From UHGV virus genome UHGV-0128831: DNA of 12,153 bases, one strand, 5' to 3'. The notes beneath the pieces were generated by a model that saw only the letters and a program-made list of their open reading frames with translations, was not told where the DNA came from and made no database searches. Source of the DNA: a virus. Made by a program: the position numbers and the translations under genes. Below, in pieces: positions 8,885 to 10,320 of the stretch (position 1 is the first letter of the stretch; every line of letters starts with the position of its first letter).

Positions 8885-9304
8885 ATGAGTAGAAATAACG
8901 AAACAAGCGGCGTTGAACTGGTTGTCGTCGGCGTATTTGCTTTCTGTCTGGCAGTTGTTGCCTGGCTAATGAAAACTTTCGATGTTGAATGGCAAACAGC
9001 ACTGGAAACTGCGCCTGGCCTGGTAGTCTGGTTGCTTGCTGTCGGAGCGGGGATCTTTTTCGGGATCAAAATGGAAACAGGTCTTGTTCGCTGGGGTGCT
9101 CCACTGGCGATCGCCCTTCTGATTCCGGTATTCAAACCAATTCTTAAGGAAGCTGCCGGAGTACGTGAAATGGGTGGGTTGGTTTTCGATGATATGGTTT
9201 CGTGGTACGGAACTGGCTGGGGAATGTCGTTGATGTTTTTCGGAATTCTTATCATTGGATACGGACTTCTTTATTGGTGGCACAGAAGAAACTCATATTA
9301 CTGA
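8885..9304 (+). CDS. Small polytopic inner-membrane protein (about 4 predicted TM helices), function unknown; prophage cargo
   Basis: 139 aa. Hydrophobic segments around residues 10-29, 45-61, 70-83 and 113-132. AAGGA upstream of the ATG. No family recognised. Confidence 0.55.
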   Translation: MSRNNETSGVELVVVGVFAFCLAVVAWLMKTFDVEWQTALETAPGLVVWLLAVGAGIFFGIKMETGLVRWGAPLAIALLIPVFKPILKEAAGVREMGGLVFDDMVSWYGTGWGMSLMFFGILIIGYGLLYWWHRRNSYY

Positions 9305-9390
9305 TAACTCCACCGTGGAAAACGACTGTAAAAGCGGTGTGATTTTCATCAACTCAGACATATTAATGGCATATCTTTGAGGATTATAAA

Positions 9391-10320
9391 TTGGCTATAT
9401 TCGAATTATTTTCAAAAAGACAAAAAAAATTAAGAGGTGAAGTAGCTGATGTTTACCAATACACGAATATACCAAATGCATTTCGTGTTCAGGTTGTTCA
9501 TATTGTAAGAGATACTATCGGTGAAGATAGTGACTATGAAACGGAAGCAAGTAAGCTTTACAGACTCGTTCATAAAACGCTGTGTAAGGAATATGGTGTA
9601 TTCTCTCTCAAACAGTATCCTGAATCGAATTTCGGGGCAATTTTTGACTATTTCCTAGCTGAGAGAGATCATGAAAAATGCTTGGATATCATTGAGATAT
9701 GTTTCAAACTGATAGACGGGTATATAAGATCAAATGAGTGGAAATTCAGAGGGTTAGTAAAGCAAAGTCCTGATGATGCTATTGAAGAACTTAATATCAG
9801 GTTTAAAGAAGCAGGTCTTGGATATCAATTTGAGTCAGGAGAGTTGGTTAAAGTTGACTCACAATTCATTCATTCTGATGTTGTAAAGCCTACGCTTCAG
9901 ATTCTTGGTAAGAACAAGAGTTATAACGGAGCAAACGATGAGTTTTTATCCGCCCATGAGCATTATAGACATCAGCGATATAAAGAATGTTTAAATGATT
10001 GCCTCAAATCTTTTGAAAGTCTAATGAAAGCCATACATAAAAAACATTCTTGGCAATTTAATGATACTGACACAGCTAAAAAACTAATTAACAGTTGTTT
10101 GGCAAATAATTTAGTACCTGAATACCTCCAGAATCAATTTTCTTCAATAAGAATTCTACTTGAGAGTGGTATTCCAACCATTCGAAATAAAGAAGGTGGA
10201 CATGGACAAGGGGCAGAAATAACAAAAGTTCCTGAGTATTTAGCGAGTTATACCCTTCATTTAACCGCTACTAATCTGCTGTTTTTGGCTAAATGCGAAG
10301 AGAGTTATACGAAAAAGTAG
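9391..10320 (+). CDS. AT-rich cargo protein, tentatively AbiJ/Abi_C-like HEPN-domain protein (candidate abortive-infection or toxin RNase)
   Basis: 309 aa. TTG start with GAGGA 8 nt upstream. N-terminus MAIFELFSKRQKKLRGE resembles the 'FSKR' start I associate with AbiJ-type proteins. C-terminal R-N-K-E-G-G-H (codons 10183-10203) fits the HEPN Rx4-6H motif. Hand-counted G+C about 27-33% over 9391-9510, against about 47% in hipA (10621-10680) and about 40% in phage genes. Confidence 0.45.
   Translation: MAIFELFSKRQKKLRGEVADVYQYTNIPNAFRVQVVHIVRDTIGEDSDYETEASKLYRLVHKTLCKEYGVFSLKQYPESNFGAIFDYFLAERDHEKCLDIIEICFKLIDGYIRSNEWKFRGLVKQSPDDAIEELNIRFKEAGLGYQFESGELVKVDSQFIHSDVVKPTLQILGKNKSYNGANDEFLSAHEHYRHQRYKECLNDCLKSFESLMKAIHKKHSWQFNDTDTAKKLINSCLANNLVPEYLQNQFSSIRILLESGIPTIRNKEGGHGQGAEITKVPEYLASYTLHLTATNLLFLAKCEESYTKK

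Follow-up and report, generated by a model that had tools for sequence, protein, structure and literature searches.

Closest Described Systems and the Locus under Study

The closest described relatives of the gene considered here are single-protein abortive-infection (Abi) factors of the AbiJ type. AbiJ of Lactococcus lactis (Abi-859) carries a C-terminal Abi_C/HEPN domain behind a variable N-terminus (PMC3710099, PMC13064643), and the mechanism of its action is not known (PMC13064643). The AbiJ-NTD4 architecture was defined in 2013 in silico on the protein CBY_0614, and the N-terminal domains (NTDs) of AbiJ proteins were proposed to sense phage components and to restrain a suicidal HEPN RNase (PMC3710099). 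An Abi_C cassette, Taranis, has been reported among the anti-phage systems of Vibrio cholerae integron cassettes (bioRxiv 10.1101/2024.07.02.601686). Here, we describe a protein of 309 amino acids (aa) with the AbiJ-NTD4 architecture that is encoded at the end of an inovirus prophage, in a DNA stretch of 12,153 nucleotides (nt) named UHGV-0128831 (the whole stretch is called the window below), along with its neighbor, the gene of a membrane protein with four transmembrane segments (4-TM).

The prophage also has described relatives. Ypfφ and CUS-1φ are listed among the elements of the CTXφ type, which have two dif-like sites in inverted orientation, let XerC carry out the first strand exchange, and integrate irreversibly (PMC4246890). 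The variability of the att-adjacent position between Ypfφ and CUS-1 has been noted before (PMC4266046), and in Vibrio filamentous prophages an accessory hot spot is enriched in defence genes (PMC11630473). Prophages of the CUS-1/Ypfφ type sit in extraintestinal pathogenic E. coli, in strain NC101, in Salmonella, and in Yersinia pestis, and their att-adjacent open reading frames (ORFs) were earlier described as having no predictable function.

The 309-aa AbiJ-Type Protein

We consider it likely that the last two plus-strand genes of the prophage are unrelated accessory genes and that the HEPN gene is an autonomous single-protein module of the AbiJ type placed in a cargo slot. The original prediction had treated the two genes as a candidate cargo module consisting of a membrane component and a HEPN effector.

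The 309-aa protein is built of two domains recognized far above the profile cut-offs, AbiJ_NTD4 (PF18863; 94.9 bits at a cut-off of 34, E 8.6e-27, residues 5-168, profile positions 1-150 of 152) and DUF7014 (PF22809; 258.9 bits at a cut-off of 27, E 1.1e-77, residues 170-305). Almost the full length of NCBIfam NF046078 (STM4504/CBY_0614) is matched as well, with 456.1 bits at a cut-off of 150 and profile positions 1-280 of 281. The model of the protein displays the four-helix HEPN fold, where the RNKEGGH motif sits in a loop between the last two long helices, and all 38 homologues compared, with 69-96% identity, keep R265, N266, G270, and H271 unchanged. The AbiJ-like N-terminus and the HEPN motif had therefore been read correctly from the sequence, given the AbiJ_NTD4 match and the invariant R and H at positions 265 and 271. 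The same does not hold for the view that the protein is unnamed, as it is already catalogued in NF046078, its architecture was described on CBY_0614, and it matches the PADLOC single-gene candidate PDC-S32. The last match is partial (E 4.5e-10, residues 6-223, profile positions 9-214 of 285), and PDC-S32 probably represents not this family but a related one with NTD4. A sequence search of the PDB with the 309-aa protein returned only noise.

In its two-domain architecture, in the models matched above the cut-off, and in the RNx4H motif within a HEPN fold, the protein coincides with the STM4504/CBY_0614 AbiJ-NTD4 family; it is a member of this family because nothing structural sets it apart, and what is new is its context, the cargo slot at the end of an inovirus that integrates at dif. 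L. lactis AbiJ is likewise a single-protein factor, but descriptions place its N-terminal domain in a different class, and the window protein shows only sub-threshold similarity to Abi_C. Taranis, a cassette of the V. cholerae chromosomal integron, is comparable in setting, since similar V. cholerae loci also contain, as a lone gene, a homologue with 74% identity to the window protein; however, the N-terminus of Taranis is related to AbiJ_NTD5, not to NTD4, and the two are different proteins. Upstream of the HEPN gene, a GAGGA Shine-Dalgarno sequence lies seven bases ahead of the TTG start, and the region from 9346 on is also conserved in front of a HEPN copy on a Klebsiella aerogenes plasmid.

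Most likely, the 309-aa protein is a single-protein Abi or toxin module expressed from the lysogen, where it is likely to act alone as a sensor-coupled RNase aborting infection. According to the mechanism we propose, the HEPN gene would be transcribed in the lysogen from the regulator strand, and its product would remain inactive until the NTD, a predicted sensor or auto-inhibitor, is engaged by a cue that comes from an infecting phage. The HEPN domain would then cleave RNA and arrest the cell, so that the lysogen population and the prophage would be protected.

Several observations weigh against this reading. Upstream of the two genes, a promoter scan detected no σ70-like site, and expression in the lysogen is only assumed because no promoter is predicted for either. 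In the profile searches that the original prediction had proposed as a check, AbiJ_NTD4, DUF7014, and NF046078 passed their cut-offs, but Abi_C (PF14355; 12.8 bits at a cut-off of 24, residues 259-300) and HEPN (12.6 bits, residues 178-252) of the local Pfam stayed below threshold; precomputed annotations give PF14355 for the query and all 120 homologues. The catalytic loop (residues 260-275) was modelled with a predicted local distance difference test (pLDDT) score below 50. The literature searched holds no experiment on any member of the AbiJ-NTD4 subfamily, and PDC-S32 is itself only a PADLOC candidate. Furthermore, recognizable defence-type domains are present in only 2 of about 9 alleles of the slot, and the distribution of the gene would also fit an addiction role for a prophage, a plasmid, or an integron.

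This last point leads to the main alternative, according to which the HEPN protein is primarily an addiction or stabilization toxin for its carrier, be it a prophage, a plasmid, or an integron array, and not an anti-phage defence. We regard it as unlikely. No antitoxin ORF adjoins the HEPN gene, and there is no repeat array or known type III antitoxin RNA: a search near the gene for such an RNA or any other revealed no tandem repeats and no Rfam match above noise. The fused NTD is the architecture predicted for sensor-coupled Abi proteins (PMC3710099), and the occupants of the slot and neighbors on plasmids include a nuclease and TIR proteins typical of defence islands.

Separate Histories of the Two Genes

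Both plus-strand ORFs lie exactly where the original prediction had placed them, and RefSeq annotates the same coding sequences in identical prophages. Their functional pairing is not supported by co-occurrence and synteny, since outside this prophage lineage the two genes are not found together. Among 5,426 complete E. coli genomes, 128 bear the membrane gene and 18 the HEPN gene. Worldwide, the membrane protein forms 49 clusters, all from Enterobacterales, and an exhaustive profile search over 1.84 billion representatives gave only 41 matches, whereas the HEPN family comprises more than 3,230 clusters across Gammaproteobacteria. In V. cholerae, the HEPN gene stands alone among small unrelated genes, and one such locus begins with an integrase beside rplT/rpmI; judged by gene context, these loci are consistent with superintegron cassettes. 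In Enterobacteriaceae, the HEPN gene forms, together with a tyrosine integrase, a two-gene islet downstream of proA, and it is also found on 339 plasmids, mostly of the IncF type. No homologue of the membrane gene was detected by tblastn in the V. cholerae, proA-islet, or plasmid HEPN loci examined, and the HEPN gene moves on its own.

A comparison with the prophage of strain WL297 shows cassette-like exchange between phage backbones directly. WL297 has another backbone, with a rep of only 80% identity, different structural genes, and a 60-aa regulator, but there are no differences from the window over 9305-10432, and differences resume at 10433. Over the membrane gene the two prophages differ at 12 of 420 nt, and over the upstream hairpin block at 12 of 101 nt. 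The base composition is also dissimilar, with a G+C content of 47.4% in the membrane gene, 34.7% in the HEPN gene, and 42.2% in the remaining prophage, close to the hand counts of about 45% and 30% made for the two genes earlier. The decoupled distributions and separate histories bear out a caveat of the original prediction, namely, that the genes may have been acquired independently.

Given this distribution, a single two-component abortive-infection or toxin system, with the 4-TM protein as a membrane sensor or effector and the HEPN protein as its RNase, is largely refuted and very improbable. The genes do adjoin on the same strand, with a gap of 86 nt and no strong terminator between them, and two distinct inovirus backbones, as well as Salmonella, have both of them. 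However, 128 genomes stand against 18 and 49 clusters against more than 3,230, the HEPN gene is always solo outside inoviruses, the membrane gene stands alone or with at least eight other cargos, and the cassette is fully identical between backbones in which the membrane gene is not. A wrong annotation as a membrane-plus-HEPN two-gene system is thereby averted. The preferred reading, two unrelated accessory genes, also offers a natural test bed for the very widespread AbiJ-NTD4 family, as near-isogenic prophages differ only in their cargo.

The Cargo Slot and Its Alleles

The interval had been interpreted as accessory cargo of a CUS-1/Ypfφ-like dif-integrated inovirus, and the comparison of prophages agrees with this. 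On the left, homology among the variants stops at 9306/9307, where the membrane ORF, in its 140-aa form, has its stop codon; on the right, it resumes at 10323, three bases past the HEPN stop codon. Between 9307 and 10323, closely related prophages with the same conserved flanks carry at least nine alleles (Table 1). Unrelated gene sets thus lie between the same conserved flanks, which makes the site a prophage accessory hot spot. Like the hot spot of Vibrio filamentous prophages and the attL-adjacent ORFs YPO2271/2272 of Ypfφ and orf1/orf1a of CUS-1, the locus is a variable site on the att side of dif-integrating inoviruses, occupied in part by defence genes. In comparison with those accounts, the borders are given here at the base level, with at least nine alleles in Enterobacterales, one of them a HEPN gene of the Abi type. 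A base-precise, swappable slot provides a concrete and testable reason why hosts keep these small prophages.

The alleles include, besides the self-contained HEPN Abi-type gene, a nuclease with a restriction endonuclease (REase) fold, which is a second defence-like occupant of the slot. In E. coli D8 (2991-4062 of that locus) and also in VR50, this allele encodes a 264-aa protein with an N-terminus similar to PADLOC PDC-S35 and a C-terminal REase_DpnII-MboI domain (E 6.9e-59), followed by the DUF6953 protein.

The constant position of the membrane gene beside variable cargo allows for another explanation, in which the 4-TM protein serves as a common RexB-like membrane effector for any downstream cargo and the slot supplies interchangeable sensors. 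Such a scheme appears improbable, though less so than a dedicated pair. It would account for the 4-TM gene being part of the regulator operon and always directly preceding the variable slot, and for several cargo alleles that have no recognizable effector domain; in addition, the size and the four transmembrane helices recall RexB of phage λ, which is co-transcribed with cI. However, no RexB or other family is matched in Pfam or PADLOC, and the HEPN and REase-fold cargos bring effector domains of their own. The HEPN gene and, judged by ORF sizes, the allele of 155 + 123 aa are found on plasmids that lack the membrane gene, and the latter is kept beside an empty slot in Lonsdalea, Mixta, and the locus L040.

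The attP Palindrome and Its Copies on Plasmids

The right flank of the slot had been described as a terminator/dif-like site. The dif-like part of this description stands, as a hybrid dif is present, but the element is mainly an attP palindrome of the CTXφ type and far more than a terminator. It is imperfect, matching its own reverse complement at 72-75%, and as DNA it folds with -30 to -33 kcal/mol (z -6.6 to -7.9). Whatever the cargo, the palindrome is 84-97% conserved in all prophage variants, and it is kept in E. coli, Y. pestis, Y. enterocolitica, Pantoea, Brenneria, and Photorhabdus. As RNA, it gives a fold of -30 kcal/mol followed by UUUU, and it may double as a terminator.

The palindrome is found on 489 plasmids, as compared with the 339 that have the HEPN gene, and on these plasmids it starts 0-3 bases past the stop codon of diverse cargo genes. 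The cargo in front of it is the HEPN gene, a 380-aa "nucleotide-binding protein" beside TIR genes, or a set of 89 + 155 + 123 aa, in which the last two ORFs match the MS8345 allele in length. No remnants of inovirus proteins were present in the plasmid palindrome loci checked. Compared with the chromosomal form, the plasmid palindromes differ in the outer half of the right arm, and the HEPN allele has its own variant of the right arm. A K. pneumoniae IncU plasmid, pSIM-1-BJ01 (L047, 1-8635), carries complete tandem inovirus prophages, and its record contains the palindrome four times.

It is conceivable, though doubtful, that the cargo and attP together make up a cassette linked to Xer, by which single-gene defence or toxin modules are shuttled among inovirus backbones, chromosomal dif, and plasmid Xer-like sites of Enterobacterales, the 4-TM protein being a lineage-specific exclusion factor kept beside attP. 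There are three hints in this direction: the block 9305-10432 shared by two backbones has its right breakpoint at the dif junction, the attP right arm of the HEPN allele is a variant of its own, and, on plasmids free of phage genes, the HEPN gene and three other cargo sets each have the palindrome directly behind them. It is equally possible that the plasmid palindromes are decayed right ends of plasmid-integrated prophages and that the conserved flanks of the slot exchange it by ordinary homologous recombination, for which a crossover could lie anywhere in 9182-9305. As simple CTX-type integrants at nearby plasmid dif-like sites, the plasmid units are not readily explained: their right arms lack the XerC arm of those sites.

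Acinetobacter pdif modules and the hybrid CTXφ genomes arising from tandem prophages are likewise gene units that are bounded by Xer sites and move between replicons. The cargo + attP block resembles them in its right breakpoint at the dif junction and in its presence on plasmids; however, an inverted pair of Xer sites is not demonstrated around it, and on the plasmids the right arms do not represent simple hybrids of the dif-like sites nearby. If it exists, the cassette would correspond, in enterobacteria, to pdif modules or integron cassettes, and the palindrome accompanied by cargo genes on plasmids gives a lead on how such genes move.

Table 1. Positions of the features discussed; coordinates refer to the window unless a plasmid locus is named
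Feature	Position (nt)	Strand	Basis, remark, or carrier
STM4504/CBY_0614 family protein, 309 aa, single-gene AbiJ-type module	9391-10320	+	TTG start
AbiJ_NTD4, putative sensor domain	9403-9894	+	Pfam match
DUF7014/HEPN effector domain	9898-10305	+	Pfam match
RNKEGGH (R265-H271), Rx4-6H HEPN RNase catalytic signature	10183-10203	+	conservation in homologues
Cassette-specific region upstream of the HEPN gene	9305-9390	+	Shine-Dalgarno GAGGA at 9379-9383
attP palindrome of the CTXφ type, 98 nt, right flank of the slot	10323-10420	.	conservation and fold
Left dif-like arm, GGTTCGCACAATGACGTTATGCTAAAG	10326-10352		part of the palindrome
GC hairpin	10353-10386		part of the palindrome
Hybrid dif, GGTGCGCATAATGTCAACGCGTTATGTTG, end of the right (outer) arm	10391-10418	-	part of the palindrome
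4-TM membrane protein gene, 139 aa (140 aa elsewhere), phrog_4174, left flank of the slot	8885-9304	+	ORF, RefSeq coding sequence
Hairpin with U-rich tail, terminator- or attenuator-like	8815-8850	+	perfect 9-bp inverted repeat; direct RNA folding
RstR/cI-like helix-turn-helix regulator of 148 aa, opening the plus-strand arm	8339-8785	+	HTH_3, E 1.6e-9
Regenerated perfect chromosomal dif, opposite end of the prophage	1123-1150	-	28/28 match; 0 matches expected by chance
Slot allele, 369-aa protein			UTI89
Slot allele, 363-aa proteins			CAVp367, SCU-101
Slot allele, DpnII/MboI-REase-fold protein + DUF6953			D8, VR50
Slot allele, ECs_2282 Zn-ribbon protein + 159-aa protein			TUM13936
Slot allele, 155 + 123 aa			MS8345
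Slot allele, 54 + 105 + 257 aa
Slot allele, 131 aa			Pantoea
Empty slot, membrane gene alone beside dif or attP			Lonsdalea, Mixta, locus L040
Palindrome, plasmid locus L004	~4936-5005
Palindrome, plasmid locus L005	~4944-5013
Palindrome, plasmid locus L045	~6001-6078
Palindrome, plasmid locus L046	~3001-3073
Palindrome, plasmid locus L048	~3001-3073
Palindrome, plasmid locus L049	~3001-3071

The 4-TM Membrane Protein and the Hairpin Preceding Its Gene

The description of the first gene product as a small polytopic membrane protein is correct: four hydrophobic segments (residues ~10-30, 43-63, 66-88, and 111-132) correspond to four helices in the AlphaFold2 model. The gene is under strong purifying selection (dN/dS 0.03-0.24 in 8 orthologues). 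The protein belongs to no family in Pfam, PADLOC, or NCBIfam, it has no detectable homologue with a known function, and a fold search gave no informative match; neither sequence nor fold resembles RexAB or a known membrane defence effector.

Regarding its place in the phage, the protein is neither a core inovirus component nor a partner of the HEPN protein. The possibility that it is encoded by a core inovirus gene was rejected, since Ypfφ and relatives from Brenneria and Photorhabdus have attP and lack the membrane gene. In Ypfφ, an identical regulator is followed by soluble ORFs of 135 and 87 aa and then by attP, and Ypfφ makes infectious virions and integrates (PMC4266046); the membrane gene is therefore dispensable. 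Overall, the regulator arm carries it as an accessory gene that is restricted to the clade and conserved, yet dispensable.

Our best guess, made with low confidence, is that the 4-TM protein most likely takes part in superinfection exclusion or in some other membrane-level function benefiting the lysogen; the guess is based on the location of the gene on the strand of the regulator, on its survival as an intact ORF in remnants of deleted prophages, and on the strong constraint. With λ RexB and superinfection-exclusion proteins it shares the properties of a small polytopic inner-membrane protein encoded beside a repressor on the strand expressed in lysogeny, but there is no similarity in sequence or fold, and the analogy is functional only.

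Solitary intact orthologues of the membrane gene are found 300-500 bp from dif in Lonsdalea (6387-7571) and Mixta (6587-7411 of their respective loci). Both lie in what is left of deleted prophages; the one in Lonsdalea is directly followed by an attP remnant, and its slot is empty. In CP056148.1 (L040, 8001-13314), a homologue with 36% identity has an attP-like palindrome 2 nt past its stop codon and no cargo, and a type II operon of the cyclic-oligonucleotide-based anti-phage signalling system (CBASS; cyclase, E1-like, JAB, and SAVED) lies about 500 bp beyond the palindrome.

In the window, the membrane ORF ends at TGA after 139 codons, while five of the seven orthologues compared have TGG-stop and 140 aa. 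A single G-to-A change at 9304 (TGG-TAA to TGA-TAA, window 9302-9307) shortens the window ORF by one codon; this difference was considered as a breakpoint at the slot border and rejected, being a point mutation.

Between the regulator and the membrane gene, the terminator-like hairpin that the original prediction had placed behind the regulator is real. It spans 8815-8841 (-12.2 kcal/mol, z -2.7), with the arms ACGTGCAGT and ACTGCACGT, and is followed by the U-rich tail UCUUUAUU. The promoter scan missed both this hairpin and the one in the palindrome because of its loop-size limits, and both were folded directly instead. Homology with inovirus backbones that bear different regulators begins at 8784-8798 and thus takes in the hairpin, which is part of a block that accompanies the membrane gene in backbones whose regulators are unrelated. 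Hence, the hairpin may regulate the membrane gene rather than simply end the regulator transcript.

Prophage Setting

The window represents the region of the E. coli chromosome around dif and hipBA, where a 9.3-kb inovirus prophage is inserted between a perfect dif and hipA/hipB (10497-12103). Its minus strand encodes Rep, G5P, the coat protein, a pIII-like protein, DUF2523, Zot, and the secretin, and its plus strand the helix-turn-helix regulator followed by the 4-TM and HEPN genes. No integrase was found among the prophage genes in the ORF list or the RefSeq annotation. The inverted dif-like pair able to fold as a hairpin, the regenerated dif, and the lack of an integrase are the hallmarks of a CTXφ-type IMEX, a mobile element that integrates by making use of Xer, and by its sequence the prophage is a CTXφ-type, dif-integrated inovirus of the CUS-1/Ypfφ group with a predicted dependence on Xer. 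Amino-acid identity with the Y. pestis Ypfφ loci reaches 99% for rep and 100% for the regulator, which shows a weak phage_RstR match and belongs to phrog_3557, a family of transcriptional regulators.

The region 8300-10420 has no match in the phage GenBank collection. At 100% identity, the prophage is present, often in tandem, in NC101, NGF1, and about 12 other complete genomes. Tandem copies at dif are common (NC101, WL297, MS8345), and in EC5502 as many as 16 places match the membrane gene. The adjoining hipA is cut short in VR50 (4238-4531 of the locus), by an IS3 element, and in SCU-101 (4266-4586 of the locus). Finally, contigs with this inovirus (rep 86-99% identical) occur in metagenome-assembled genomes (MAGs) labelled Ruminococcaceae, Aerococcus, Bacteroides, and Nanosynbacter, which most likely reflects mis-binning.

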